Shown piece by piece: positions 9,494 through 40,433 of a stretch of 45,869 bases of DNA; position 1 is the first letter of the stretch; each line of letters opens with the position of its first letter. Source of the DNA: a virus. Location: positions 103,151-149,019 of IMG/VR virus record IMGVR_UViG_3300021426_000003, one strand, 5' to 3'. The notes beneath the pieces are model-generated. The model did no database searches. It was not told the DNA's origin and was given only the letters and a program-made list of their open reading frames with translations. The translations under genes and the position numbers were made by a program.

Positions 9494-9596
9494 TGTGATG
9501 CTTACAGCAAATATTCTGTAGGTAGTCAAGAGGATAAGACACTAGATTGATAATCTGGCAACACTGGTTCAAATCCAGTCCAACAAAAGCATCATG
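9494..9596 (+). ncRNA. ACAGCAA-motif RNA copy 3 enclosing a tRNA-Ile(GAT)-like body
   Basis: GTGATGC-TTACAGCAA...D arm, CTAGA-TTGATAA-TCTGG, ACTGG-TTCAAAT-CCAGT...GCATCAT. Confidence 0.65.
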
Positions 9597-9611
9597 AAAG
9601 GAGTAAAAGGA

Positions 9612-11114
9612 ATGAATTTTGCAGAAGCTATTAAAAATGAAACAAAATGGACAAGAACAGAGAATGGTGCAATTGCACTTAATACTACTGGCACTGCTTG
9701 TCTTGATTTGTTTGGAACAATTGGTGCTTTGAGAAAAGCAGACGAGGCTAGAATCACTTCTCTGTTTGAAGAAGCATACAAAGAAAATCCTCTTCTTACT
9801 ACAAAGATTCTCTTTTATGCAAGAGATATTAGAGGTGATAAAGAAACAACTGGTCTTGGTGAAAGAAGAGTATTTAGAATTATTCTTAAATATGCGGCTC
9901 TTCATCACCCTGAATGTATCAGACCTAATCTTGATTTGATTGGTGTATATGGAAGATATGATGACCTGTATGAATTGATTGGTACACCACTTGAAGATGA
10001 TATGTGGTCTGCTATGAAGAAACAGTTTGAAGAAGATAAGATTAATCTTGAAAAAGGTAATGTAATTTCTCTTCTTGCTAAATGGATTAAAACTGCTGAT
10101 GCTTCTTCTGAGAAGACTAGGAAGCTTGGTATAAAAACAGCTCTTAAACTTGGATATAATGTATTCGAGTTTAAGAGAATTGTAAGAGCGATGAGAAAGC
10201 ACCTTAGAGTTGTTGAGGGTCTTATGTCAACTAATCAGTGGGATAAGATTACATATTCTGAAGTACCTTCTAGAGCAATGATGATTTATAGAAATGCTTT
10301 TAAAAAGCATGATGCAGATAGATTTAATCAATTCGCTCAGAAAGCTGTAACTGGAGAAGTTAAGATTAATTCCACTACACTTTATCCTTATGACATTCTT
10401 GAGAAGTATAAAGGTCGAGGTTATGGGAATTATTATAGCGGTTCTAATCTGAATCAAACAGAAGAGAATATTCTTCAAGCACAATGGGATGCACTTCCTA
10501 ATTATGTTGAAGAAGGTACAAACGCAATTATAATTGCAGATACTTCTGGTTCTATGAGCGGTAGACCAATGGATACAGCAGTTAGTCTTGCGATTTATTT
10601 TGCACAAAGAAATACTGGCGCTTATCATAATCTTTGGATGAATTTTAGTTCTAGTCCTTCTTATCAAACGATTAAGGGTAAGACATTAAAGCAAATTCTT
10701 TCCAATATTGATTATGGCAATTGGTCTGGTTCAACAAATTGTGCAGCTGCTTTTGAACTTATTCTTAATACGGCTATTAAGAATCATGTGTCAGTTGATG
10801 AAATGCCTAAAAGTTTGATTATTGTATCTGATATGGAATTTGATTGGTGTGGTGGTCAGAACTGGACGTTTTATGAGGAAATGAGAGCAAGATTTGCTCA
10901 ATATGGATATGAAATTCCAACTGTTGTATTCTGGCAGGTTGATTCAAGACATGACACTTTTCATGCTGATGCAAGTCGCAAAGGCGTAGTTTTAGTAAGT
11001 GGACAGAGTACTGGTACTTTTAAGAATCTTATTGGTTCTGTTGGAATGAGTCCTACGGAATTCATGTATAAGTGTATTCTCAGTAAGAGATATGAACTTG
11101 TTACTGTTGAATAA
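9612..11114 (+). CDS. DUF2828 family protein (Ro60/TROVE-like + vWA domain)
   Basis: RTENGA, LDLF, ARDIRG..GLGER, YGRYDDL, LAKW, VPSRAM, LYPYDI motifs; MIDAS DTSGSM; SDMEFD. Confidence 0.85.
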   Translation: MNFAEAIKNETKWTRTENGAIALNTTGTACLDLFGTIGALRKADEARITSLFEEAYKENPLLTTKILFYARDIRGDKETTGLGERRVFRIILKYAALHHPECIRPNLDLIGVYGRYDDLYELIGTPLEDDMWSAMKKQFEEDKINLEKGNVISLLAKWIKTADASSEKTRKLGIKTALKLGYNVFEFKRIVRAMRKHLRVVEGLMSTNQWDKITYSEVPSRAMMIYRNAFKKHDADRFNQFAQKAVTGEVKINSTTLYPYDILEKYKGRGYGNYYSGSNLNQTEENILQAQWDALPNYVEEGTNAIIIADTSGSMSGRPMDTAVSLAIYFAQRNTGAYHNLWMNFSSSPSYQTIKGKTLKQILSNIDYGNWSGSTNCAAAFELILNTAIKNHVSVDEMPKSLIIVSDMEFDWCGGQNWTFYEEMRARFAQYGYEIPTVVFWQVDSRHDTFHADASRKGVVLVSGQSTGTFKNLIGSVGMSPTEFMYKCILSKRYELVTVE

Positions 11115-11507: not shown

Positions 11508-11801
11508 TTTATAATTAAATTAATATCGTGGGCATCCCTTCTCGAATACTAATCTACAATATTAATTTAATTATTTCCGCAGAGTGGATGATGCGGTATA
11601 AAAGAAATCGACCATCCTGTGTGAGTAGGAGATATGAAATGTGAATCTGGCTACACACAGTGAGTCCTAAAGCCCCTGATGTAAATGGGACTATGCGTGA
11701 ACTGATACTGTCCAAATATCCAGACAAGATTCTTAATAGCCCTTCTGGAGGCACAGTTGTAAAACACATCTGAGAACGCTAGGCAAAAGGCAAAATTAAA
11801 T

Positions 11802-11917
11802 ACCGTGATGGCGAGAATAGGTAGACGCTAGGCTTGGTGAGGTATGCATTATAGAAGACGAATGATATTAAGTTACCATGGGCATATCATGTAAGGTGCA
11901 AATCCTTGCTCACGGTA
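11802..11917 (+). ncRNA. tRNA-like RNA with expanded central region and no clear anticodon
   Basis: Acceptor ACCGTGA/TCACGGT; Leu-type D arm; T arm GTAAGG-TGCAAAT-CCTTGC. Confidence 0.5.
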
Positions 11918-12072
11918 TTATCAGCTAAAGAGGTTTCGGTGTAACCCCGTGTAATTCTCTCCTACCAAAATCCCGACTGGAGATATCCTCAGAAAATCAA
12001 ATTAGCTTATCTTGGGGATATGATAAGTAATGTCTGTAACAATTTTATAAGCTGTTTTGTGTTACAGAATAT

Positions 12073-12156
12073 GCACCCGTGACGTAACAGGCAACCGTGG
12101 CAGACTTAAAATCTGCTCCTCATAAGAGGGTGAGGGTTCGATTCCCTTCGGGTGTA
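12073..12156 (+). tRNA. tRNA-Leu(TAA)
   Basis: GCAGA-CTTAAAA-TCTGC; variable arm; discriminator A. Confidence 0.9.
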
Positions 12157-12255
12157 CTTAATTGAACCTTGCAGTGGAGGTTGTAAGAATTAAAGAATTT
12201 AATGCTTTATTCTTAATTCATGAGTTAGGAAGCTGCCTCTAAACCAATAAAGCAT

Positions 12256-12311
12256 GGGATACAAACAGCAATACATTCCAAAAAAGACTTGAAATCTTTC
12301 ACCAAATGGTT
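12256..12311 (+). ncRNA. ACAGCAA-motif RNA copy 4 with Ser(TGA) anticodon loop, running into the CRISPR array
   Basis: GGGATAC-AAACAGCAA...AAAGA-CTTGAAA-TCTTT; the expected GTATCCTG strand is absent. Confidence 0.55.
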
Positions 12312-12537
12312 ATTTTGGATATCTGTTAATTTTAAGTGCTATAAAACTTTAACAAGACTCATTATATAAGTTTTGGATATCTGTTTTTTTTAAGTGTTCT
12401 AAAACAAAAAATGCCGATTGGTTACGGAATGGTTAGTTTTGGATATCTGTTAATTTTAAGTACTCTAAAACCCTCACAGGTTTTGACAGCAAGCCTCTGG
12501 AGTTTTGGATATCTGTTAATTTTAAGTACTCTAAAAC
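12312..12537 (+). CRISPR. CRISPR mini-array: 4 x 36-nt repeats, spacers 22/30/30 nt
   Basis: Consensus GTTTTGGATATCTGTTAATTTTAAGTACTCTAAAAC at 12312, 12370, 12436, 12502; last two identical, first two degenerate. Confidence 0.92.
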
Positions 12538-12561
12538 CTCAAATATTTAAAACACTTAAAA

Positions 12562-12790
12562 GTTTTAGACCACTTAAAATTTAGGAGTAAATCAAAAATA
12601 GAATAAGACATTAAGTTGTCTACGTTATCAAGAGATAATATCTTACTGTGTAACTCTAGCAGTAATCATATCGCTGAAGTTTAAACATCCATGACTCCTT
12701 GAACAGTAACGTGGAAGTGACAAAGCATTAAAGACTTTTGATAACTTTTTCGAAGAGTATTACCGTCCTTGAGACGAGACAAAATTTTAA
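12562..12790 (+). ncRNA. anti-repeat plus omegaRNA scaffold of CRISPR-associated IscB
   Basis: 12562-12597 GTTTTAGACCACTTAAAATTTAGGAGTAAATCAAAA is an imperfect reverse complement of the repeat; GTTATCAAGAG (12624) pairs with CTTTTGATAAC (12735); CTACGTTA and TTAAACA omegaRNA-like motifs; 3' end approximate. Confidence 0.8.
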
Positions 12791-12798
12791 AGGATTAA

Positions 12799-14349
12799 AT
12801 GAAATATTTAGATTATACGTTTGTAGTTGATAATAATAATGTTCCATGTATGCCAGTAACAAATAATGAAGCTGGCTATTTAATAAGATGTGGTTTGGCA
12901 AAAGTAATAAATCATGACCCATTTGTGATTCAACGACTTGACGATTACATTTCTGAATCAGAAATCAGAGATGAAATCACAATGAAGATGGATATGGGAT
13001 ATATGAATGTAGGTTTTTCTGTTGGAACGAAAGACCATGAATATCTATCAGGTCAAGTTAAATTACTTAATGGAATATCGGAAAGACTTGAACAAAGAGC
13101 AAGTTATCGCAGAACACGAAGGGGCAGAATACGTTATAGAAAAAATAAGAATGTGGATTATAAGACAATTCATAATCCGACATACAAGAATGGGAATGAA
13201 GATAATTGGATTGCGCCATCGGTTCAGCACAAGATAGATTCGCACGTTCGCCTTTACAGGAAAATCGCATCATGGATTCCAATTGATAAAATTATTATTG
13301 AAATTGCCAACTTTGATATACAAGCTATTAAGGCATTAAAGGATGGCAAAGAAATATCTGGAGTTGATTATCAACGAGGTGAAATGTATGGATTTGAAAA
13401 TGTAAAACAATATGTTAGAGAACGTGATAATTATACTTGTCAAATTTGTGAGACAGATACTATAAAAAAGGGGACTGGACTTGAAGTACATCATATTATT
13501 CCAAGGTCACAGGGTGGAAGTAACAAGCCGTCAAATTTAATTTCTTTATGTAAAAAATGTCATAACAAAGTGCATTCAAATAATAATAACAATAAATATT
13601 TTCATGAATTACAAACAAGAAAAATTAATGACACTTATAAAGATGCTACATTTATGAATACATCTAGATGGCGCATTTATGAAAGTATAGGAAGTAAATG
13701 TCCAACTTATATTTCCTATGGTTATATTACAAGTTTAAATCGTAAAACAAATAATCTTCCTAAATTTCATTATGTTGATGCAGCTTGTATTCAGAAATTT
13801 ACATATAAAACTTTAACAAAAAATATTTATCTTGTTGAACAAAAAAGATGTAACGACAGATGTATGTCTACTTTTTGGGATGCAAAATATATTGATAATC
13901 GTGATGGTAAAGAAAAGAAGGGCAGTGAATTATCATATAAAAGATTACCAAGCGCGACATCTAAGCGCACAACAAGAAAAGAAGATGTAGAAAATGATAG
14001 AGTTTATAGACAAAGAAAAACAAAAAAAGGAGAATTTAGATTTGTTTGTAATTCACGGTGCTTAAAAGCTGGTGATTTAATCCGCATTAATATTGGTAAA
14101 AGAAAAGGCATTATTGGAGAAGTTACAAATAGTCAAATAGAAAGAAATAAGTATAAAGTACGTTTTACTTATGATGGTCAAGATGTAAAATATCCATCTA
14201 TTTCTATTTCGAAAGATGAATATAATATATTGAAAGAAACAGGAAAATGTGATAGTATAAGTATTGTTCGTACTAGAAGAGGAATGATTTGGAGAAAATA
14301 CGACAGAGCGAAATACGAATCTGAAAATGTAGACCAGTATTCTTCGTAA
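12799..14349 (+). CDS. iscB: IscB RNA-guided endonuclease (OMEGA), CRISPR-associated
   Basis: PLMP-like PCMP; RuvC-I MDMGYMNVG; bridge helix RASYRRTRRGRIRYRK; WIAPS; RuvC-II IEIANFD; HNH RDNYTCQIC...HHIIPRSQGGSNKPSNLISLCKKCH; RuvC-III HYVDAACI. Confidence 0.93.
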   Translation: MKYLDYTFVVDNNNVPCMPVTNNEAGYLIRCGLAKVINHDPFVIQRLDDYISESEIRDEITMKMDMGYMNVGFSVGTKDHEYLSGQVKLLNGISERLEQRASYRRTRRGRIRYRKNKNVDYKTIHNPTYKNGNEDNWIAPSVQHKIDSHVRLYRKIASWIPIDKIIIEIANFDIQAIKALKDGKEISGVDYQRGEMYGFENVKQYVRERDNYTCQICETDTIKKGTGLEVHHIIPRSQGGSNKPSNLISLCKKCHNKVHSNNNNNKYFHELQTRKINDTYKDATFMNTSRWRIYESIGSKCPTYISYGYITSLNRKTNNLPKFHYVDAACIQKFTYKTLTKNIYLVEQKRCNDRCMSTFWDAKYIDNRDGKEKKGSELSYKRLPSATSKRTTRKEDVENDRVYRQRKTKKGEFRFVCNSRCLKAGDLIRINIGKRKGIIGEVTNSQIERNKYKVRFTYDGQDVKYPSISISKDEYNILKETGKCDSISIVRTRRGMIWRKYDRAKYESENVDQYSS

Positions 14350-14382
14350 AATTTTCTTTTAAAAGTCAAATGAATAATCAAT

Positions 14383-14447
14383 TGGGACACTTACAGCAAA
14401 TTTTTACAAGCACATTCTTTGAAAATGTATACTTATTATGTGTCCTG
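14383..14447 (+). ncRNA. ACAGCAA-motif RNA copy 5 with Gln(TTG) anticodon loop
   Basis: GGGACAC-TTACAGCAA...ACATT-CTTTGAA-AATGT...GTGTCCTG. Confidence 0.65.
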
Positions 14448-14450
14448 TAT

Positions 14451-14525
14451 GGGAAGTTAGCAAACATGGTTGTTCGGCGCTGGACTGAAAATCCAGTCAA
14501 CTTGGTTCGATTCCAAGACTTCCCA
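14451..14525 (+). tRNA. tRNA-Phe(GAA)
   Basis: CTGGA-CTGAAAA-TCCAG; acceptor GGGAAGT/ACTTCCC; weak D stem. Confidence 0.8.
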
Positions 14526-14544
14526 GTTTTATATAATAATATAT

Positions 14545-14628
14545 GGGTAGGTATGCCTAGCGGCGAAGGCGGCGGACTGTAAATCCGTTACAAAAGAAAC
14601 ACCGAAGGTTCGATTCCTTCCCTGCCCA
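14545..14628 (+). tRNA. tRNA-Tyr(GTA)
   Basis: GCGGA-CTGTAAA-TCCGT; variable arm. Confidence 0.9.
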
Positions 14629-14636
14629 TTAAATTT

Positions 14637-14708
14637 CTGGGTGTGGTGCAATAGTAGCATGCATGATTTGGGTTCATGTGGTTGCAGGTGCAAGTCCTGT
14701 CACTCAGA
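14637..14708 (+). tRNA. tRNA-Pro(TGG)
   Basis: CATGA-TTTGGGT-TCATG; atypical T-loop TGCAAGT. Confidence 0.8.
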
Positions 14709-14710
14709 TT

Positions 14711-14812
14711 GGCAATGTGGTGTAAGTACAGTGTACGGGTTATGGGAAAAGCACACTGGATAAGAGCGCTCATTATTAATCCAGAGGATATGGTTCGAAT
14801 CCATACATTGCA
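14711..14812 (+). ncRNA. tRNA-like RNA with enlarged D and anticodon loops
   Basis: GCAATG/CATTGC acceptor; CTGGA/TCCAG stem; TATGG-TTCGAAT-CCATA. Confidence 0.5.
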
Positions 14813-14847
14813 ATTGGGTTTCTTCCTAATCTTATTATTTTTGTATT

Positions 14848-14919
14848 TGGGATACTAACAGCAATTATTTTACATCGCCAAATCTAAATTAGCACTTGAT
14901 GTAGGTGCAGAGTATCCTG
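14848..14919 (+). ncRNA. ACAGCAA-motif RNA copy 6
   Basis: GGGATACT-AACAGCAA...ACATC/GATGT inner stem...AGTATCCTG. Confidence 0.6.
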
Positions 14920-14944
14920 TTTCTTTATAAAATAAAGGTTTATT

Positions 14945-15187
14945 ATGAATAAAAAATATCAATGTATTAAATCTTTTGAAACTAAATATGATTATTATGG
15001 TAAAGATTATGGCAATGCTGGAATGGTTAATGAAGGTGATATTTATATTATTGTAAGAGAACCAGTTCCTAAAAAGAAATTATATAAATTAAAAAAAGAA
15101 AATGATGATAGTAAATGGGATACAGGTTATTTGTATTTAAGAGAAAATTTCTTTAAAAGACATTTTAAAAAAGTTGAAAATGATTGA
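14945..15187 (+). CDS. hypothetical protein within the tRNA cluster
   Basis: AAGGT RBS; 80 aa. Confidence 0.55.
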   Translation: MNKKYQCIKSFETKYDYYGKDYGNAGMVNEGDIYIIVREPVPKKKLYKLKKENDDSKWDTGYLYLRENFFKRHFKKVEND

Positions 15188-15190
15188 TTA

Positions 15191-15265
15191 CTCCGCATAG
15201 CTCAGTTGGTTTAGAGCACTTGACTTTTAATCAAGATGTCGAGAGTTCGAATCTCTCTGCGGAGA
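15191..15265 (+). tRNA. tRNA-Lys(TTT)
   Basis: CTTGA-CTTTTAA-TCAAG; canonical arms. Confidence 0.9.
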
Positions 15266-15411
15266 TTAAATAAAAGATTCAGTAATGGTGCTGTATTTCT
15301 CTATAGCGCTAGAGAAATTGAAAATCGGTTCGATTCCGATAGAGATAAAGACGAGCGCAAGTCTTAATTGAGTCTTGGCAGACAGACGGTTCAATTCCGT
15401 AATCTTTTTTG

Positions 15412-15508
15412 GGGAAGATTGGTGGAAAAGTGTAGACACGAGGTCGCTCCTTAAATACATATTTGTACAGGTATGTATTTGTACAGGTTCAAGTCCTGTA
15501 TCTTCCCT
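15412..15508 (+). ncRNA. tRNA-Leu-like RNA with degenerate anticodon arm
   Basis: GGGAAGAT/ATCTTCCC; T arm ACAGG-TTCAAGT-CCTGT; long AAATACATA/TATGTATTT arm. Confidence 0.5.
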
Positions 15509-15658
15509 ATAATGATATGAGTAATGCGGTGTGGGTAGCGCCCACATGCTGTATGCAAACTTGATATTTTGAAGAGCGACAAAAGTGCGCATTATTGTGA
15601 TGCAACGGATATCCAGTTTAAGTACCAGACCATTACTCTGGGAAACATATCATTATAA

Positions 15659-15732
15659 GGGGCGTTAGCACAACGGTTTGCGTGCAGGTGGCTTATACCC
15701 ATCCGATAAAAGTTCGACTCTTTTACGCCCTA
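15659..15732 (+). tRNA. tRNA-Ile(TAT)
   Basis: GGTGG-CTTATAC-CCATC; acceptor GGGGCGT/ACGCCCT. Confidence 0.8.
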
Positions 15733-15928
15733 TTATAATATTTATTTTAAATAAGGAGGTCTATCTGGTCTTCGGACTCAAAAGATAGTAAAGCAAAGGA
15801 TACGTCCTTAAAAGAAGACAATCACAAAAAACGGTAGTTGAAATACTAGTTAATTAAACTATTCTCACATAACACTTAATCCAGCTTGGAGATTGTTTGT
15901 GTGCCTTTATGAGTGGTATGTGAATTAT

Positions 15929-16001
15929 GGCTCGTTGGTCAAACGGTTAAGACACTGGTCTTTCCAACCAGAATTAGTGGGTTCGATTCCCCTACGAGCT
16001 G
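15929..16001 (+). tRNA. tRNA-Glu(TTC)
   Basis: CTGGT-CTTTCCA-ACCAG; Glu-type D arm GGTCAAACGGTTAAGAC. Confidence 0.85.
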
Positions 16002-16042
16002 TTAATGGTTGTATTGCTAACAGCCATTACATTAAATAAAGT

Positions 16043-16120
16043 AGTAAAATGGTGTAATATAGGGGCACAAAACTTAAGAAGATTTGAGTTTAAGAGCAGG
16101 TTCGATTCCTGCTTTTACTA
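16043..16120 (+). ncRNA. tRNA-like RNA with enlarged anticodon loop
   Basis: AGTAAAA/TTTTACT acceptor; GCAGG-TTCGATT-CCTGC. Confidence 0.5.
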
Positions 16121-16164
16121 TATATTTTTTATATTAATTAAAGAAAGGGGGATTAAAATGAGAT

Positions 16165-16350
16165 ATGATATGCAAAAAATGTGGCAAGAAAATAAACCCC
16201 CACAAAGCTAATAAAGAATGGGATGAATCAGCATCATATTATAGTACAAAAATATTGCGATGTCCTGATTGTAATAATGTAATTGCCATATTGGAATATA
16301 GTAACGAAATAGAGCTTGACATTAATAATGATGTAAGATATTATATATAA
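16165..16350 (+). CDS. Zn-ribbon protein
   Basis: CKKCG...CPDC. Confidence 0.55.
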   Translation: MICKKCGKKINPHKANKEWDESASYYSTKILRCPDCNNVIAILEYSNEIELDINNDVRYYI

Positions 16351-16397
16351 AGTAACAAGTAAATAATATAAAATAATTAAATGAAAGGAATTAAAAA

Positions 16398-17006
16398 ATG
16401 GGATTTGAATGGAAAAGTGGAATGTGTTATCTATTTGATGTTGAAACAGGAAATATTGTAGCGAATTTTCCAACAACAGGTATGACAACAACAATGGGTA
16501 CGACAAAGACAGAGGAAGTGGAAAGAATGATTAAGATTATTGATGTTGATGTTGACTATGAAAAGAAGACTTTTGTAGATAAAACACAGAGAGATAAGAA
16601 TGGCAATTATATGGTAACAAAGAAAGAAGTACCAGTAGCTACCATTGTTACATTTGAAAATGGTAATACTCAGATTGCAGTTTGTGATGAAAATGATGAA
16701 TTCAATCTCGAAACTGGTATTTCTATTTGTGTAACAAGAGAGCTTATGGAACGTCTATATGGAATATCTAATGAATGTGCAAGTCCTTATAATAAAATTA
16801 TTAGACAGGGAATGAAAGCTTATAAGAATCGTTGTAAGTTTAAAGAGATTAATGAAAAGCGAATTGCTGAACAGAAAGCTATTGAAAAGAATAAAAAGAT
16901 TAAAGAGCAGAAGCGTAGAGAGAAGAGATCTGCTAAAAAGAAGGAACGTGAGATTGAAATTCTGACAGAAGCAATGAAAAGAGCTAACGCAGATTCAAAT
17001 AAATAA
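16398..17006 (+). CDS. hypothetical phage protein
   Basis: AAGGA RBS; TIVTFENG...CDENDEFNLETG module. Confidence 0.65.
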   Translation: MGFEWKSGMCYLFDVETGNIVANFPTTGMTTTMGTTKTEEVERMIKIIDVDVDYEKKTFVDKTQRDKNGNYMVTKKEVPVATIVTFENGNTQIAVCDENDEFNLETGISICVTRELMERLYGISNECASPYNKIIRQGMKAYKNRCKFKEINEKRIAEQKAIEKNKKIKEQKRREKRSAKKKEREIEILTEAMKRANADSNK

Positions 17007-25183: not shown

Positions 25184-27680
25184 ATGTTTAGTTGTCACGG
25201 GCATACATGTCATAGCAATTATCGACTCAGGGATTCAATTATCAGAGTCCCTGATTTTATTACAAGACATAAAGAATTAGGATTTTCTGGTTGTGTCTTA
25301 ACCGAGCACGAAAGTTTGGGCAGCCATCTTGAAGCTGAAAAATTCTTTGAAAAATTAAAAGATACACCAGAATATGAAGGATTTAAAGTAGGATTTGGAA
25401 ATGAGATTTATTTATGTCCAGATTATGTAACAGCAGAAAATGTTGGACATAATATATATCCTCATTTTATTTTAATTGCACTTGATGCGTTAGGTCATAA
25501 AGCATTGCGAGAATTAAGTACTATTGCTTGGACTAAAAATTCTTTTTATTCGATGATGTATAGAGTTCCTACATATTATTCCGACCTTGAAGAAATACTT
25601 GATAAATATAAAGGTCATTTAGTTGGCTCTTCGGCTTGTCTTGGAGGAAGTATTCCTAGAAAACTACTTGAATATCGTTCTATTGAAAACATAGATGTAA
25701 TCCAAGCTGAAACACTTTGGAGACAGATTAAAGAATGGATTGAATATATGGTTGAAATATTTGGTGAAGGATATTTCTTTTTAGAGATGCAACCAAATTC
25801 TCATGAAGACCAGATATATGTTAATAAATGTTTATATAAATTATCTCAAGAAACTAATGTTCCTTTTATAATTACATTTGATGAGCATTATCTTAAAAAA
25901 GAAGATAGAGATATTCACAGGGCTTATTTGAAAGCGTCAGATGGTGATAGAGAAGTCGATGAATTCTATGCCAGTACTTATATAATGACCGAAGAAGAAG
26001 TTCATGAATATATGGACGATTATCTTGGTTCAGATGTAGTGCAACAAGGTATGGATAATACAATGCTTATATATGATAAAGTACAATATTATTCATTAAA
26101 AAAGGAATTACAGATTCCTTATTTACCATTTGATTTATCTGAACCTGATGAAGATTTATTTAATAAATATAAAGATAAAATTGAATTATTAGATTATTTT
26201 TACCATTCTGAATATCCATCTGATAGACATATGACGAGAGAGCTTCTTAAATCATTAGAAAAGAATGCTCATTATCAATGTCAAAGAGGGTATGATGCAA
26301 TTCAAGAATGTTTATCTTCAATTAAGATTTCATCAGAAGCTAATAAGGTTAGATGGTCTGCTTATCTAATGCAAGTCAGAGATTATGTTAATATTGCATG
26401 GGAATCTGATAGTATTGTTGCACCATCAAGAGGTTCTGGTGGAGGATTTTGTTTACTTTATTTATTAGATATTATTCAACTTGACCCTCTTCGAGAAAAT
26501 ACTAAAATGTATCCTTGGCGTTTCCTTAATCCAGAACGTGTTAGCGTACTTGATATTGATACAGATGTTGAAGCTGCTAAACGTGAATCAATTATTCGTA
26601 AGATTAAAGAAACCTATGGTTATAATAAAGTATCAAAAGTGTGTACTCTTCAGACAGAAAAAAGCAGAAGTGCAATTTTAACAGCAGCTAGAGCATTAGA
26701 TATTGATAATGATACAGCTTCTTATATAGCTTCATTGGTTGTATTTGATAGAGGTCAACCTAGAGATTTGCATACCATGTATTATGGTAATGAAGATTAT
26801 GCTCCAGTTTTCGAATTTGTTCGAGAAATGGATGCAAGACCAGAATTGTGGGAAGTATCTCAAAAGATTGAAGGATTAATAAGCGGTATCGGCTCTCATG
26901 CAGGTGGTGTTATTATTGATGACAAACCATTAACAGAATCAACTGCACTAATGAGAACTAATTCTGGTGATATTATTACACAATTTAATCTTCATGATTG
27001 TGAAGATGCAGGATTAATTAAAATAGATTTGCTTGCAACTGATGCTTTAAATTTTATTCACGCTACATTAAATCTTTTATTAAAAAATAATGAAATTGAA
27101 TGGCAAGGTAATCTTAAAGAAACTTATAATAAATATTTAGGTATTTATAATATTGATAGAGCCGCTCCTAAGATGTGGGATATGATTGCTAAACATAAAA
27201 TTATTAATCTATTTCAAATGGAGAAGGATAGTGGTAAAAGGGCATTAGCTTTAGTCAAGCCACATTCGGTTGATGATTTAGCTACTATTAATTCAGTTAT
27301 TCGTCTTATGGCTCAAGAAAAAGGTGCTGAAACACCTCTTGAAAAATATGCTAGATTCCATGATAATATTCAGCTCTGGTATGATGAAATGACTGAATAT
27401 GGATTAACAGATGAAGAACAAAATATATTAAAAGATATTTTGGGAATATCTTGTGGCATTTGTGAAGCACAAGAATATCTTATTTTGTTGACAATGCATC
27501 CTAAAATTGGTGGTTTTAGCTTGAAATGGGCTGACCAACTTAGGAAAGCAGTGGCAAAAAAATCACCTAAAGATTTTGATAAATTGGAAAAAGAATTTTT
27601 TCAAAATATGAAAGATAAAAATCTCTCAGAGAATCTATGTAAATATGTCTGGTATGTTTTGATATATACACAGCGTGGCT
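25184..27680 (+). CDS. dnaE: DNA polymerase III alpha, exon 1
   Basis: PHP domain H.H...S...D, TEHE; RGSGGG; DIDTD; HAGG; KIDLL; ends ...TQRG + T. Confidence 0.9.
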
Positions 27681-28643
27681 AAAACTGTGGTCACGATAAA
27701 TTCGGTGAACGTATGCAAAAACGGTGTATAGTAAAATACTATGCTAACGGTATCAGTTATATATATAAATACGCTGACTAAGAGAACCTATGGTCTCAAA
27801 AGAGATAGCAGGTAATACCGTGCCAAGCCTTTATAAAGGAAGGTGTAACGACTATTATGTACATCTGAGATTAGCACAGATGGAAGCGCCGAATAGAGTT
27901 GGTTGCTTAGAAAGTGGATATATATGGATATAAAATATAATAGAGAAAATTTGGAATGGAGACCTGTTGTGGGTCTAGAAGGAAAATATGAGGTATCAAA
28001 TTACGGAGATATTCATAGATTAGAAAGAAAAGCTCCATCAGGAAATGGTGGATATCGTATATTAACAGACCATGTTTTTTGGGCTGAAGAACAAAAAGAA
28101 TATGGCGGTTGTGACCCTAATAATAGATATTTAGGAATTCATATATCTAAAAAATTAGGTAAAATGTATATTCATCGTATTGCAGCCAAAGCTTTTTGTC
28201 CGAATCCTGATAATAAGCCAGAAGTAAATCATATTGATGGTAATCACAAAAATAATTATTGTGGTTGTAAGAAAAATAATTATAAAGATAGTAATTTGGA
28301 ATGGGTATACCATTCTGAAAATATGAAACATGCTTCTGAAAATAATTTAATAAATAGAGATAGTGAGTTAAGGAAATTAAGGAGCAAAGAAAATCACTAT
28401 ATAAAACGTCCAGTAATTCAATTAGATTTAGAAGGAAATATAATAAATAAATATGAAAATGCAACTGAAGCTCGTAAACAATTAGGGTATATTTCTAATA
28501 ATTGTATTAACAGAGTATGTCGTGGAGAACGAAAAAGTTATAAAGGTTTTAGATGGCAATATGTGGATGAATAAAAAAGAGCAACCAACTCTAAAGAGAT
28601 AGTCTAGTCCCCTAACAAATATCGGGAAACCGAGGGTACATCA
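27681..28643 (+). mobile_element. group I intron with homing endonuclease in P8
   Basis: P1 CGTGGCT/GGTCACG with U.G; P7 GACTA/TAGTC; TAGAGTTGGTTGCT/AGCAACCAACTCTA brackets the ORF; splicing restores RGYGFNKAH. Confidence 0.85.
27924..28574 (+). CDS. intron-encoded NUMOD4-HNH homing endonuclease
   Basis: EWRPVVGLEGKYEVSNYG; HRIAA.AF.PNP....EVNHIDGN..NN....NLEW; NUMOD1-like C-terminus. Confidence 0.85.
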   Translation: MDIKYNRENLEWRPVVGLEGKYEVSNYGDIHRLERKAPSGNGGYRILTDHVFWAEEQKEYGGCDPNNRYLGIHISKKLGKMYIHRIAAKAFCPNPDNKPEVNHIDGNHKNNYCGCKKNNYKDSNLEWVYHSENMKHASENNLINRDSELRKLRSKENHYIKRPVIQLDLEGNIINKYENATEARKQLGYISNNCINRVCRGERKSYKGFRWQYVDE

Positions 28644-30070
28644 ATGGATTTAACAAGGCGCATACTCTCGCTTATAGTTGTATAGGTGTACAAGAAGCAT
28701 ATTTAAATTATAAATATAATCCAATTTATTGGCAAACTGCTAATCTAATTGTCAATTCTGGTTCATATGATGAAGATTCAAATGAATCTACTAATTATGA
28801 TAAGATTGGAGTTGCTATTGCGACAATTCAAATGGACGGAGTTAAAGTAGAACATCCATTAATTAATAAAGCCCAATTTGAATTCACACCAGACATTAAA
28901 AATAATCAAATTATGTTTGGTTTAAAAGGTATTAATGGTGTTAATACAGACATCGCTCAATCAATTATTCAAAATCGTCCTTTTAAATCTATGGAAGATT
29001 TTGCTTCAAGAATGATTGATACAAAGATTATTAAAAACTCACAAATGATTAAGCTGATAAAAGGTGGATGCTTTACTGAGATTGATTCTGAAGATAAAAC
29101 AGAAACCATGAAGTGGTATTTGTCTAAGTATTGCATTAATCCTGTTACCAGTTTGACGCTATCTCAATTTAATAGAATGGTTGAATATAATATTATTCCA
29201 AATGAATTTGATTTGGCTGTTAAAATGATTAATTTTAAAAAATATGTTCTTGATGATGAAGGGTTATACGAAAAATGGATTGACCCGACTAAACCTAAAA
29301 TCCCTAAAAGGGGTTATCATGATGGACATTATATTTTAGATGAGCCTTCCCAAGAATTTTTTAAAAAACATTTCACTGAAGATAGTATTGTAGATGTAGT
29401 TGGTGGATTTTATGTACTGTCTGAAAAGAAATTTACTAAAGAAATTGATAAGAAGATTGAATCTTTCAGAATCTGGCTTGATGTGGGCGATGCTATTGAT
29501 ATATATAATAAAGCTATGTTTGATGAAGTTTGGAATAAATATGCAAATGGTACAACCGATGCTTGGTCTATGGAAGCCTTAACATATTATGATAAAGACC
29601 ATGAGTTAAAGAATACTCCTGAAGGAGTATATGGTATTGTTAATTTCTTTGAACTTCCAGAAGAACCAGTTGCATATGAATTTTATACAAGATATGTAGA
29701 TGGTAAACCGAAAGCAGTACCTAAATATACTATTTCTCGTATTGCAGGAACGGTTGTTCAAGCTGATAATAATCATCATTCTGTTGCATTATTAACCACA
29801 CATGGACTTGTAAATATTAAATTTAGTAAAGGGCATTATGCTTTTTATAACAAGACAATTTCAGAAATTGGTGAAGATGGTAAGAAGAAGACAATTGAAA
29901 GTAGCTGGTTAAAACGTGGTAATAAATTATTAGTAAGTGGATATAGAAGAGGAGAACAGTTTATTCCTTGGATATATAATGATACGATTTACAGACATAG
30001 AATTAATTTAATTGAACATATTAATGAAGACGGAACATTAGAATTAAAAGCTGAAAGAGCAAAGGTATAA
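28644..30070 (+). CDS. dnaE: DNA polymerase III alpha, exon 2
   Basis: GFNKAHTLAYS...YNPIYW; FGLKGINGV; in frame with ORF 28832; spliced product about 1307 aa. Confidence 0.85.
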
Positions 30071-34707: not shown

Positions 34708-36657
34708 ATGAAAATTGATATTAAATTAATTAAAAATTTTGTTTCTCAATATAATAAATTACAGGCAGAATTTGGAACAGATATTGCAAAATTAAATGGG
34801 TTTGATGATGGACAACTTAGTTATACAGATTTTATAGATAATTTTATAGACGAAAAAGTTGTTGCTGATTCTAGTATTGATGGCAATTCAAATGTTAGTC
34901 ATAAAGATATTGTTACACTTGAACGTGAAATGCCTAAACCTCATTCAAAGCTTTTAGCTTTTAATAAAATATACTACGAAATTTCTAAAAAATTTGGTTT
35001 TAAGATTGCTAATGACTGGTTAAGAATGGAATGGGTGGGAAAATTATATATGCATGATGCTCCTTCTAGCACATTTCGCAGTTATTGTTTTGCATATGAT
35101 TTAACAGACCTTGCTGAAAAGGGACTGTTTTTTATTGAAGGGCAAAATCCTGAACCTGCTAAACATTTAACTACTTTTGTTGATTTTGTAAAAGAGTATG
35201 TAAGCTTTGCTTGTAATAGAACTTCTGGTGCAGTAGGGCTTCCAAATATTATTCCTTATATGTATTATTTTTGGAAGAAAGATGTTGAACAAGACTATTT
35301 AGGAATTAGAACAAGTCATAATGAAAAATATTATGCTAAACAAAACTTCCAAAGATTTATTTATGCAGTAAATCAACCGTATGTCAGAGATGGAAGTCAG
35401 TCAGCTTTTACAAACACTTCTGTATTTGACCATCCTTATTTTGAAGCTTTGTTTGGTGGGGCAGAATTTCCTGATGGAACTTTTATGATTGATTATGAAG
35501 AAGAAATTATTGAATTTCAGAAATGGTATATGGAAGTAATGTCAGATATTAGAAGTTCTAATATGTTTACTTTCCCAGTGAGTACAATTTCTTTGCTTAG
35601 ACAGAATGGTAAATTTGTAGATGAAAAATTTGCAAAATGGGCTGTTAAACATAATATGAAATGGTCAGACAGTAATTTGTTCATTGATGAGACTGTTAAT
35701 TCACTTTCAAATTGTTGTAGATTAAAGAGCAATATTGAAGACCTCGGGTATTTTAACAGTATTGGCGGTACAGCTCTTAAGGTTGGTTCAGTAAAAGTTA
35801 ATACAATAAATCTTGCAAGAATTGCTCTTGACACAAATAGCGAAGAAGAATATTTGGAAGAACTTAAAAATAGAACTTATATTTGCTTATGTGCTTTGGA
35901 TGCAGTTAGACATACTATTCATAGGAATGTTGAAAAAGGTATTCTTCCTAATTTTTCTTATGGATTGATTGATTTTGAACATCTTTATAATACTATAGGC
36001 TTTATTGGTGTTTATGAATCAATGAAAAAATTTGGATATATTAGAATAGATGAATTTGGTAATACTTATTATACAAAAGAAGCGTCTGCTTTTGGAGAAA
36101 AAATATTTAAAACTATGAGAAAAGTAGCAGACGATTTTATTAAAGAATATTCTTGTGATTATCAAATTAATACAGAGCAAATTCCCGGTGAAAGCGCTGC
36201 TGCTAAATTAATGAAAAAAGATAAATTCTTTTATCCAAGAGCAAATATTTATGACCTCCCTTTATATGGCAACCAGTTTATTCCTCTTGGTATTAAGACC
36301 ACTCTTCAAGAAAGAGTTAGAATTGCTGCTGAATTTGATGGATATTGTAATGGTGGCAGTATACTTCATGCAAATATTGATGCACCGTTTGACAGTTTTG
36401 AAAAAGCGTGGAAAATGGTTAATTATATTGCAGACCAGCACTTAACATATTTCGCATTCAATACAAAAATTCAGTGTTGTGAAAATAATCATGCTTTTTA
36501 TGGAGCTATTTGTCCTGTATGTGGAAAGCCTGTAGACAGTGAGTACACAAGAATTGTTGGATTTTATACTAAAATTAAATCTTGGTCGAATGAAAGGACA
36601 CAAGAATACAAACTTAGAAAATGGGAAGCAGTAAATAATAACGAGGTAGTTTTATGA
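34708..36657 (+). CDS. nrdD: anaerobic (class III) ribonucleotide reductase
   Basis: SNCCRL; EQIPGES; C-terminal Zn-site cysteines; RIVGF glycyl-radical loop. Confidence 0.9.
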   Translation: MKIDIKLIKNFVSQYNKLQAEFGTDIAKLNGFDDGQLSYTDFIDNFIDEKVVADSSIDGNSNVSHKDIVTLEREMPKPHSKLLAFNKIYYEISKKFGFKIANDWLRMEWVGKLYMHDAPSSTFRSYCFAYDLTDLAEKGLFFIEGQNPEPAKHLTTFVDFVKEYVSFACNRTSGAVGLPNIIPYMYYFWKKDVEQDYLGIRTSHNEKYYAKQNFQRFIYAVNQPYVRDGSQSAFTNTSVFDHPYFEALFGGAEFPDGTFMIDYEEEIIEFQKWYMEVMSDIRSSNMFTFPVSTISLLRQNGKFVDEKFAKWAVKHNMKWSDSNLFIDETVNSLSNCCRLKSNIEDLGYFNSIGGTALKVGSVKVNTINLARIALDTNSEEEYLEELKNRTYICLCALDAVRHTIHRNVEKGILPNFSYGLIDFEHLYNTIGFIGVYESMKKFGYIRIDEFGNTYYTKEASAFGEKIFKTMRKVADDFIKEYSCDYQINTEQIPGESAAAKLMKKDKFFYPRANIYDLPLYGNQFIPLGIKTTLQERVRIAAEFDGYCNGGSILHANIDAPFDSFEKAWKMVNYIADQHLTYFAFNTKIQCCENNHAFYGAICPVCGKPVDSEYTRIVGFYTKIKSWSNERTQEYKLRKWEAVNNNEVVL

Positions 36658-39278: not shown

Positions 39279-40433
39279 ATGCCTACAAAAAACATTAAAG
39301 TTATTGTAGGTTCTTAGTCCAATTATGGTGATGAGGGCAAAGGATTAGCTACAGATTATTTTTGTAATCCTTCTGAGAAATGGCTTGGTGTATTGACAAA
39401 TGGTACATCCCAAAGAGCACATACTGTTGATACAATTGACGGTAAACATCATGTATTTTCTCATTTTAGTTCTGGGACTTTTCAAGGTGCAGATACTTAT
39501 ATTAGTATTAATTTTGCAATTAATCCTATTACTTTCGTTAATGAATATCTCACTCTACAAAATGAATTTGGTATTACACCTAAGGTATATATTCACCCAG
39601 ACTGTAAAATTATTACCCCTTTTGATATTTTAGCTAATTTGACTGAAAGAGAACAATCTGGTCTTCATAATACATGTGGCAATGGTTTTTGGAAAACTCT
39701 TGTAAGATATAAAGATGGTTATGGAATAGGTAGAATATCATTCTTTTATAAAAAGAATGAGTTTTGGATGGAATATTTAAATAATATAGAAGAGTATTAT
39801 AAAACTATATTAAAAAACATTGATTTAAATTTTAATGGCATTAAAGCACATTTTATAAATGACCTACAATTTGTATTAGACCATTCTTTCATAATTGGAG
39901 ATGAAATTCTAAAATCATATTCAAATATCATTTTTGAAAATGGACAAGGATTATTAATCGGAAGACAAAGTTCAAGAGTTGATTGGGATTTTTGTACACC
40001 ATCTAATACAGGAATGAGATATGCATATAATATAATTGAAAATAATATAATTAGTGCAGATGTAGAAGTGTGTTATGTATCAAGAACTTATTTAACGAGA
40101 CATGGTGATGGAGAACTGATTAATGAGTGTGGAGTAGAAGATATTAATAAATCAATTATTGATTATACTAATATTCCCAATGCATGTCAGGGCAGTTTAA
40201 GATTTTCTTGTTTTAATGATGAACAATTAATAAATAGATTGCATGAAGATTGGGTAAATAATATTAATCCACCTCATTATTTCTCTAATAAAAATAATTA
40301 TAAATGTTCTTTAATGTTGACTCATTGGAATGAAAAACAAATTGAATTAGAAAATATAAAAACCTGTAATTTATTTAATGGTAAAATTTATATTTCAGAT
40401 GGAAAGACAAAAGAATCGGTAAGGAGTATATAA
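39279..40433 (+). pseudogene. adenylosuccinate synthetase-like gene with in-frame TAG at codon 13
   Basis: MPTKNIKVIVGS*SNYGDEGKG...AHT...FENGQG...TPSNTG...RTYLTRHG. Confidence 0.75.

Follow-up and report, generated by a model that had tools for sequence, protein, structure and literature searches.

Within the window (the whole stretch of phage DNA analyzed here, 45,869 nucleotides in length), positions 12312-14349 carry, in order, four 36-nt repeats, a linker of 24 nt, a degenerate repeat in inverted orientation, an omegaRNA scaffold of the HEARO type, and a gene for a 516-aa IscB. Comparison with related loci suggests, with a probability of about 80%, that the locus encodes a functional CRISPR-associated IscB similar in type to DelIscB and forms a portable cassette (about 2.06 kb) on a large phage that is SPbeta-like and infects Firmicutes of the gut or rumen. 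A preliminary description of this DNA had identified a phage-encoded CRISPR-associated IscB with an omegaRNA that starts with an anti-repeat. That identification is right, and the coordinates and all of the features given for 12312-14349 hold.

IscB is a miniature Cas9-ancestor nuclease, and CRISPR-associated IscBs, reportedly described by Altae-Tran et al. in 2021 under the name CasIscB, provide the clearest present-day analogues of the transition from a transposon nuclease to Cas9. To the best of our knowledge, little is known of their natural role. The locus offers a phage-borne family (about 40 protein clusters), strong comparative evidence for the repeat:anti-repeat:omegaRNA design, natural targets of a CRISPR-IscB (a prophage-like element and a type I restriction gene), and a testable idea of how an array without Cas1-Cas2 gains spacers. 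Additionally, a 516-aa nuclease with a natural single guide would be a candidate compact genome editor.

The IscB protein and its cassette

The IscB gene (12799-14349, + strand) was characterized by NCBIfam, Pfam, alignment, and a structure model. Its product passes the curated equivalog model guided_IscB (NCBIfam NF040563) with 289.6 bits versus a cut-off of 175 over residues 8-331, and it contains the Pfam domains RRXRR (residues 8-194) and HNH. The N-terminus is of the PLMP type (PCMP at residues 16-19 aligns with the PLMP of canonical IscBs), and an arginine-rich bridge helix spans residues 103-114, with a conserved RRTRRGRIRYR stretch. The RuvC residues D65, E168, H324, and D327 and the HNH residues H231, H232, N246, and H255 are invariant across 60 aligned sequences. 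The C-terminus is predicted to form a TAM-interacting-type region with clade-specific insertions. By relatedness, the closest solved structures are those of IscBs (TbaIscB, HfmIscB, and OgeuIscB). Similarly, a Foldseek search with the AF2 model (pLDDT 79.7) returned IscB structures as best matches (8csz, OgeuIscB, E 6e-26; 9liq; 9nvu; 9k30), with Cas9s far lower. A REC lobe is absent; the bridge helix and RuvC-II are separated by no more than an insert of 11 residues, which was modeled with low confidence. The domain set, catalytic residues, and fold are thus shared with canonical transposon IscBs that act with an omegaRNA (OgeuIscB and KraIscB; HEARO). However, identity to canonical IscBs is 35-41% over about 82% of the length, and the clade of the window differs from them in the insert after the bridge helix and in a longer C-terminus. 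The source of the guide also differs, being a CRISPR array here and a transposon end in canonical IscBs, and no TnpA is present here; residence of IscB in an IS200/IS605 element with TnpA is typical, not universal.

The complete phage genome is 149,019 bp in length, has direct terminal repeats, and received a completeness rating of 100%. Neither cas1, cas2, nor Y1 tnpA was found in the whole of it, which extends to the complete genome what had been described for the window. The phage DNA polymerase is nearest to those of SPbeta-like and other Firmicutes phages, at 37% identity. Chimerism of the contig, raised in the preliminary description as a possible source of error, was checked by means of an independent metagenome contig (L121) that is collinear with window positions 11564-16782 at 97-98% identity, spanning tRNAs, array, and IscB; the contig is not chimeric.

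The boundaries of the cassette (12313-14368, about 2.06 kb) are indicated by a relative, L230, that shares only this segment, at 87% identity, in the 4.6 kb read around its IscB. Homology to L230 stops at the right edge of the cassette (14350-14368, + strand). The cassette lies in unrelated contexts, namely a tRNA island in the window, the neighborhood of a GmrSD_N gene in both L229 and L230, and, in L129, a site flanked by nucleotide-metabolism genes. Embedding in a tRNA island, as first described, applies to the window, where 12 tRNA genes lie on both sides of the cassette; as a general context it was rejected, being present only in the window, L002, and L121.

The layout of the locus is common to all relatives for which sufficient upstream DNA was available (about 25 loci, on contigs that are phage or phage-like), within a family of about 40 related protein clusters. 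Array and anti-repeat are present in 15 of 15 IMG/VR relatives as well as in L121, L129, L131, L229-L231, and L236-L241. Such consistent recurrence of the arrangement, accompanied by co-variation of repeat and anti-repeat, is more than chance. No Cas1 was found in the 15 related phage records, five of which are at least 90% complete.

Repeats, anti-repeat, and omegaRNA scaffold

All elements of the array are given on the + strand. Repeat 1 (12312-12347), which is scaffold-distal and marks the left edge of the cassette, and repeat 2 (12370-12405) are degenerate, with 3 and 4 mismatches to the consensus, while the scaffold-proximal repeats 3 (12436-12471) and 4 (12502-12537) are identical to each other and represent the consensus. 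Spacer 1 (12348-12369) is shortened to 22 nt and is identical in L121 and in L002, a 93%-related phage. Spacer 2 (12406-12435) and the scaffold-proximal spacer 3 (12472-12501) are each 30 nt in length; no target was found for the former, and the latter matches a type I restriction gene, hsdR, at 29 of 30 positions. The linker (12538-12561, 24 nt) starts with CTCAAAT and continues as a partial second copy of the anti-repeat.

The anti-repeat (12562-12598, + strand) is a degenerate copy of the repeat in inverted orientation. Over its first 20 nt, it shows 90% complementarity to repeat positions 17-36 (the 3' part), with a weaker match to about 12598, and its 3' AAAAA pairs with the 5' GUUUU of the repeat, adjoining the guide. 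Repeat 4 is predicted to pair in cis with the anti-repeat, with the linker as the loop, and this hairpin is present in the minimum-energy fold. The scaffold (12599-12798, + strand) reaches the start codon of IscB. Rfam HEARO (RF02033) matches 12599-12763 on the + strand with 51.7 bits (E 7e-9), though under the gathering score of 83, and the scaffold includes the nexus-like CGUUAUCAA element of canonical HEARO, to which it is homologous, and a co-varying terminal hairpin at about 12764-12778. Positions 1-52 of the HEARO model have no counterpart in the scaffold, these first 52 positions being replaced by the anti-repeat.

Comparison among relatives bears on the strand that is read. Compensatory changes were identified in 24 of 43 scaffold pairs, and, from clade to clade, repeat and anti-repeat change in concert at repeat positions 6, 18, 21-23, 25, 27, 28, 30, and 31. 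The pair at repeat position 14 is G.U in 9 of 10 rows of the pair comparison, and G.U pairs between repeat and anti-repeat exist only on the + strand, as the minus strand would give A.C mismatches. Of 16 loci, 10 have duplex energies in favor of the + strand, but the window is not among them; this mixed result led to the replacement of duplex energies as a strand criterion by pair-level co-variation and G.U counts. A scan of the locus for promoters and terminators gave nothing above shuffles. The earlier proposal that a + strand transcript would yield a natural single guide is well supported by these comparisons of sequence (co-variation of scaffold and duplex, G.U pairs restricted to the + strand, and the fold in cis).

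As a working CRISPR-IscB, the locus would be expected to operate as follows. The array and scaffold would be transcribed together from the + strand, and the last repeat would fold onto the anti-repeat such that a natural single-guide RNA is formed with the scaffold-proximal spacer as its guide. Spacer-repeat units further upstream may base-pair in trans with anti-repeats on other transcripts and be trimmed by host RNases, like crRNA:tracrRNA. IscB would then cut guide-matching DNA beside a TAM, which could disable, within the infected cell, a rival mobile element and a restriction system. Decay of the locus into a relic without current function would account for the short array, its two degenerate repeats, and the shortened 22-nt spacer. 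This seems extremely unlikely given the invariant catalytic residues, the compensatory evolution of the scaffold, the identity of the two proximal repeats, the near-perfect matches between spacers and targets, and the retention of the same layout in about 40 protein clusters.

The layout itself has precedent. DelIscB has the same layout, has been validated experimentally, and cleaves DNA with a 16-nt guide; its repeat/anti-repeat hairpin can be shortened to give a single guide (PMC12660989). As judged from the published layout, both systems have an IscB-sized protein without a REC lobe and, on the same strand upstream of the ORF, spacers and repeats followed by an anti-repeat and an omegaRNA-like scaffold. 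Further, independent branches of CRISPR-IscB are known (PMC10734277), and the novelty initially ascribed to the locus was therefore too high. DelIscB differs in that it came from an estuary metagenome, with no phage context in PMC12660989, whereas the cassette described here is portable and resides on phages of 80-220 kb. Moreover, natural protospacers are identified here, as is a type II-A-like leader junction on the opposite strand.

Leader-type junction and spacer supply

The reverse complement of CTCAAAT is ATTTGAG, which abuts GTTTT on the minus strand. The minus-strand end of the array, ATTTGAG/GTTT, is an exact leader-repeat junction of type II-A group 1, a motif defined in previous work (PMC5382924). 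The exact form is present in the window and in L002, L003, L004, L005, L014, and L016, and variants (CTTTGAG, GTTTGAG, or ATTTGAA) are present in other clades. The initial clue that only the reverse complement of the repeats looks type II-like is not general: in other clades the + strand also reads GTTTTAGA...AAAAC. In addition to the junction (PMC5382924), the array shares with type II-A CRISPR-Cas9 the 36-nt GTTTT...AAAAC repeats, the 30-nt spacers, and a crRNA:tracrRNA-like pairing with the guide 5' of the duplex. Unlike type II-A systems, it has no REC lobe in its effector and no cas1/cas2, its anti-repeat is fused to the array transcript, and, on the strand needed for the scaffold, its leader-type junction falls at the 3' end of the array.

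These features raise the alternative that the locus is a minus-strand, type II-A-style array whose crRNAs would serve a host Cas9 and tracrRNA, either as a hijack directed against rivals or as a decoy or antisense, with IscB using at most the scaffold-fused guide. The minus strand does present the exact ATTTGAG/GTTT junction, repeats of the GTTTTAGAG type, and, as in type II-A arrays, degenerate repeats at the end away from the junction. Further, RNAs from the minus strand would be antisense to the mRNA of each of the six mapped targets, with which a purine bias agrees (see below), and a dependence of phage arrays on host Cas proteins has been proposed earlier (PMC7162821). However, in every clade co-variation links the anti-repeat to the repeat, the anti-repeat lies directly 5' of a + strand scaffold, the G.U pairs of the duplex would become A.C mismatches on the minus strand, and the validated DelIscB has a same-strand layout (PMC12660989). 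Moreover, no host array with these repeats was found either by exact words in 185,579 species genomes, where a 24-mer and a 20-mer of the repeat returned nothing or one chance match in a coding region, or by BLAST of the array against 399 Clostridia genomes, which gave only weak single matches. On balance, service to a host Cas9 is an unlikely explanation of the locus.

The host searches also answer the proposed comparison with host type II repeats, which turned up no counterpart, and they bear on how a CRISPR-IscB array on a phage would be supplied with spacers. Borrowing of host Cas1-Cas2, as first suggested, has circumstantial support in that no Cas1 was found in the phage or in 15 relatives, that spacers turn over, and that the ATTTGAG/GTTT junction is present; the failure to find a host array counts against it. 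The minus-strand junction, as a sequence motif, hints at spacer supply by host enzymes. More speculatively, new spacers may enter at the scaffold-proximal repeat, with a host type II-A adaptation complex recognizing the opposite-strand ATTTGAG/GTTT. We offer only tentatively, and as somewhat doubtful, the idea that the array is fed in trans by this complex and read in the opposite direction by the phage IscB, such that each new spacer would be inserted beside the anti-repeat and would immediately serve as a natural single-guide RNA. If true, the locus would represent a living hybrid between OMEGA and type II CRISPR and, for the phage, a self-reprogramming weapon directed at resident mobile elements and restriction systems.

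Array turnover was evident when related phages were compared: the same arrangement recurs and repeat and anti-repeat co-vary, while closely related phages differ in their spacers. Internal deletion or recombination is a further source of change in the arrays (L236 versus L237; in L230, the last repeat is the same as its third), and a rule that the proximal spacer is the newest is thus not proven.

Spacer targets

Four spacers from three phages of the clade map to a single metagenome contig (L117), which comprises a prophage-like element (integrase, invertase, and a small ORF) and the adjoining type I restriction gene hsdR. These are spacer 3 of the window (29/30), spacer 5 of L230 (26/27), and spacers 1 and 2 of L229 (26/30 and 25/30), with protospacers in hsdR, a 66-aa ORF, a Tn916-type integrase, and a DNA invertase. 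Spacer 3 of the window matches hsdR in two contigs (L117:11124-11153 and L141/L235). The spacers have no match in the phage's own genome outside the array, and matches to the GenBank phage set were noise. Full or core spacer words (spacers 2 and 3 of the window, L004, L013, L009, and L230) occur in IMG/VR only in the arrays themselves. When all spacers were compared to 14 whole related phage genomes, a single off-array match was found (L010 spacer 1 in L011, 27/30).

Such targets also bear on whether the cassette could be a selfish IscB element that uses its guides for its own homing or retention in phage genomes, as IS200/IS605 OMEGA systems do, and attacks no other element. A discrete cassette in unrelated contexts (tRNA island, GmrSD_N neighbor, and nucleotide-metabolism genes) would be expected of such an element, and canonical IscBs are transposon-borne. 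Nevertheless, the phage genome lacks TnpA, spacer GC is 40% versus 30% for the phage, and each array holds several different spacers that turn over. The spacers match a foreign integrative element and hsdR, not the flanks of the cassette or the empty sites of related phages, and a purely selfish role is very unlikely.

Attack on competitors has parallels among other phage-encoded CRISPR systems. The CRISPR system of phage ICP1 acts against the PLE island. Systems without adaptation genes in huge phages have compact arrays, no Cas1/Cas2, and spacers against competing elements or host genes (PMC7162821). The locus described here differs from those of ICP1 and huge phages in that its effector is an IscB, not a Cas protein of types I-VI, and in that one target is a type I restriction gene. 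The natural targets (prophage-like element and type I restriction gene) and the phage setting appear to be new for a CRISPR-IscB.

No firm TAM/PAM motif was found in the flanks on either side of six protospacers. A G at +2 is present in 3 of 4 protospacers, and in 4 of 4 only if a 27-nt spacer is counted as 3'-shortened. A coding-strand bias was observed in all six mapped spacers, and the purine fraction across 60 spacers is 0.55 (p=6e-4). This bias is not predicted by a DNA-cutting IscB, and it would also fit antisense RNAs from the minus strand. As to the host, indirect hints come from the target hsdR, which has homologues distributed across Clostridia of the gut and rumen, and from a weaker spacer match (26/28) in a Ruminococcus sp. 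genome.

IscB protein and its portable cassette

The product of the 516-codon ORF at the end of the CRISPR-IscB locus (12312-14349, + strand) scored 289.6 bits against the NCBIfam IscB equivalog model (cut-off 175) and contained the Pfam RRXRR and HNH domains. The solved structures closest to it were IscBs, and its AlphaFold model (pLDDT 79.7) matched OgeuIscB at a Foldseek E-value of 6e-26, with Cas9s far behind. The RuvC residues D65, E168, H324 and D327 and the HNH residues H231, H232, N246 and H255 were invariant in an alignment of 60 sequences, in agreement with the 516-aa IscB with RuvC and HNH motifs proposed in the preliminary description. Upstream of the ORF, and as that description had read them, lie four 36-nt repeats (the IscB-proximal pair identical, the distal pair degenerate) separated by spacers of 22, 30 and 30 nt, a 24-nt linker, an anti-repeat that starts at 12562 and is a degenerate inverted copy of the repeat, and ~200 nt of non-coding DNA. 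The omegaRNA-like scaffold that had been suspected there was recovered by covariance-model search: positions 12599-12763 (+) matched HEARO, the Rfam model for the omegaRNA of IscB, at an E-value of 7e-9 and 51.7 bits, below the curated threshold of 83. HEARO model positions 1-52 have no counterpart here, and the anti-repeat occupies exactly that place.

A protein search recovered ~41 related clusters (42-91% identity over the full length, 513-579 aa), separated by a clear gap from ordinary IscBs (430-450 aa), which are only 35-41% identical. The order of array, anti-repeat, scaffold and IscB was shared by every relative with enough upstream DNA, counted over 15 IMG/VR contigs (19-222 kb), the independent metagenome contig L121 and the metagenome loci L129, L131, L229-L231 and L236-L241; their arrays comprise 2-8 repeats of 36 nt with spacers mostly of 30 nt. 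Of a 4.6-kb stretch around IscB in the sister phage L230 (87% identical), only window positions 12313-14368 are shared with this phage, and the cassette therefore spans the distal repeat to 19 nt beyond the stop codon. It sits in unrelated neighbourhoods, and a tRNA island is peculiar to the window and its closest relatives. In L229 (1-800) and L230 (1-897), a gene of the GmrSD_N (DUF262) family of modification-dependent restriction enzymes lies directly upstream of the cassette, in place of tRNAs.

Predicted RNA design and strand of the guides

Sixteen loci were aligned over a stretch that starts at the last repeat and ends at the start codon. The consensus scaffold showed compensatory changes in 24 of 43 pairs, and several pairs alternate with G.U. 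The repeat varies by clade and the anti-repeat varies along with it, with Watson-Crick pair switches at repeat positions 6, 18, 21-23, 25, 27, 28, 30 and 31. The guide-adjacent 5' GUUUU of the repeat pairs with AAAAA just before a conserved UAGA at the scaffold start, and the 3' half of the repeat pairs with the 5' half of the anti-repeat, a Cas9-like topology. In the minimum-energy fold, the last repeat, linker and anti-repeat form a cis hairpin, by which the scaffold-proximal spacer would serve as guide in a natural single-guide RNA. Co-variation and predicted fold both favor the + strand order of spacer, repeat, anti-repeat and scaffold put forward earlier. The same layout of array, anti-repeat, scaffold and IscB was reported and experimentally validated for the CRISPR-associated DelIscB (PMC12660989).

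The array could alternatively yield minus-strand RNAs, either of an antisense type or meant for host Cas9. Such RNAs would also fit the bias of the spacers. In each of the six mapped cases the + sense spacer is identical in strand to the coding sequence of its target, and the + sense of 60 unique spacers is purine-rich (mean 0.55; 38 above and 19 below 0.5; Wilcoxon p=6e-4). Of 10 distinct rows, however, 9 have G.U at repeat position 14, which would give an A.C mismatch on the minus strand, and the probability of this alternative is considered low. With + strand IscB guides, the purine and strand bias could stem from a TAM that is short, purine-rich and located 3' of the protospacer.

Natural targets and acquisition of spacers

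Spacers differ between close relatives, the window and the 93%-related phage L002 having only the distal 22-nt spacer in common, and average 40% GC versus 30% for the phage. No spacer matched the genome of the phage itself outside the array. When a 22-mer of spacer 3 (scaffold-proximal) was scanned against metagenomes, the spacer matched contig L117 (OCTX014520710.1) at 29/30 positions within a type I restriction R-subunit gene (hsdR; Pfam HSDR_N, ResIII, T1R_D3) and, again at 29/30, a 96%-identical hsdR allele in a rumen MAG. Spacers from three IscB phages match this contig, the others being L230 spacer 5 (26/27, in a 66-aa ORF) and L229 spacers 1 (26/30, in a Tn916-type integrase) and 2 (25/30, in a DNA invertase). 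L117:1-8800 is a prophage-like integrative element, encoding the integrase, a repressor-like regulator, the invertase, Erf and a zinc-ribbon protein, and directly adjoins hsdR. Because four spacers map to L117, the spacers of this clade appear to aim at one such element and the adjacent hsdR, which may be either cargo of the element or its chromosomal neighbor. Other clades gave two weaker matches: one is between L010 spacer 1 and a sister phage, and the other lies in a prophage-like part of a genome from Ruminococcus sp.

In three cases, variant spacer pairs fall on one site (L016 s2/s3, L239 s3/s4, and L009 s3 with L006 s1). The paired spacers (L016:5491-5585; L239 array; L009/L006 arrays) differ at few, partly synonymous-looking positions, so that the same site seems to be targeted in two alleles of a gene; this suggests repeated acquisition from one favored protospacer.

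Neither Cas1, Cas2 nor a Y1 transposase was found in the whole 149,019-bp genome, which extends to the complete phage an absence first noted for the window, and Cas1 was absent from the 15 related phage records. Adaptation genes are commonly missing from phage CRISPR systems (PMC7162821). Degenerate repeats always lie at the IscB-distal end of the array, and [C/T/G]TCAA[A/T][T/G/C] is kept in every clade immediately 3' of the last repeat. Read on the minus strand, this junction is ATTTGAG (or C/GTTTGAG, ATTTGAA) followed by GTTTT, a reversed counterpart of the ATTTGAG-type leader-repeat junction, which is conserved in type II-A group 1 arrays and on which adaptation in Streptococcus thermophilus depends (PMC5382924). 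As no Cas1 occurs in any of these phages, supply by a host type II-A complex is the simplest idea, and we infer that such a complex would insert new spacers at the scaffold-proximal repeat. The borrowing of host Cas1-Cas2 envisaged earlier has circumstantial support from the missing phage Cas1, the turnover of spacers and the II-A-like junction; against it, searches of 185,579 species genomes (exact words) and 399 Clostridia genomes (BLAST) recovered no host array that shares these repeats, the junction base differs among clades, and internal deletion and recombination also alter arrays.

CRISPR-associated IscB is a kind already known, having arisen several times (PMC10734277), and viral contigs are known to carry IscB/HEARO genes (PMC9755519). 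Apparently new against the literature consulted, each with possible overlap with loci of Altae-Tran 2021 or the 2022 virus-CRISPR survey, are the phage-borne portable cassette and the size of its family, the comparative support for the predicted RNA design, the natural targets and the reversed type II-A-like junction.

Phage setting

The window forms the final 45.9 kb of its parent virus record (149,019 bp), which has direct terminal repeats and is rated complete. All large ORFs of the record share a single strand, with matches to phage replication genes, and its DNA polymerase comes closest, at 37% identity, to those of SPbeta-like phages and other phages of Firmicutes. The cassette is surrounded by twelve tRNA genes, as the tRNA-island setting had implied, and since L121 independently reproduces the order tRNAs, array, IscB, tRNAs at 97-98% identity, chimeric assembly is ruled out at this locus. 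Within the island, 9594-11114 (+) encodes a 506-aa DUF2828/DUF7788/VWA protein (PHROG 850, 'RNA-binding protein').

Positions 39393-40433 (+) encode an adenylosuccinate-synthetase-like protein that is short, at 346 aa, and fits PurZ by size and family (Pfam Adenylsucc_synt; PHROG 1211). PurZ belongs to phages that replace adenine with 2-aminoadenine, and if the assignment holds, the base replacement would shield the phage's own DNA from many restriction enzymes and guide nucleases. The DNA polymerase (25184-30070, +) appears as two pieces (832 and 412 aa) that match the same polymerase PHROGs, with a NUMOD1/NUMOD4 homing-endonuclease ORF between them (27903-28574); either a split gene or an intron that carries a homing endonuclease could account for this arrangement. 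The large subunit of the anaerobic ribonucleotide reductase (34708-36657, +) matches its PHROG over two separate stretches, so that an inserted element, for example an intein or intron, may be present.
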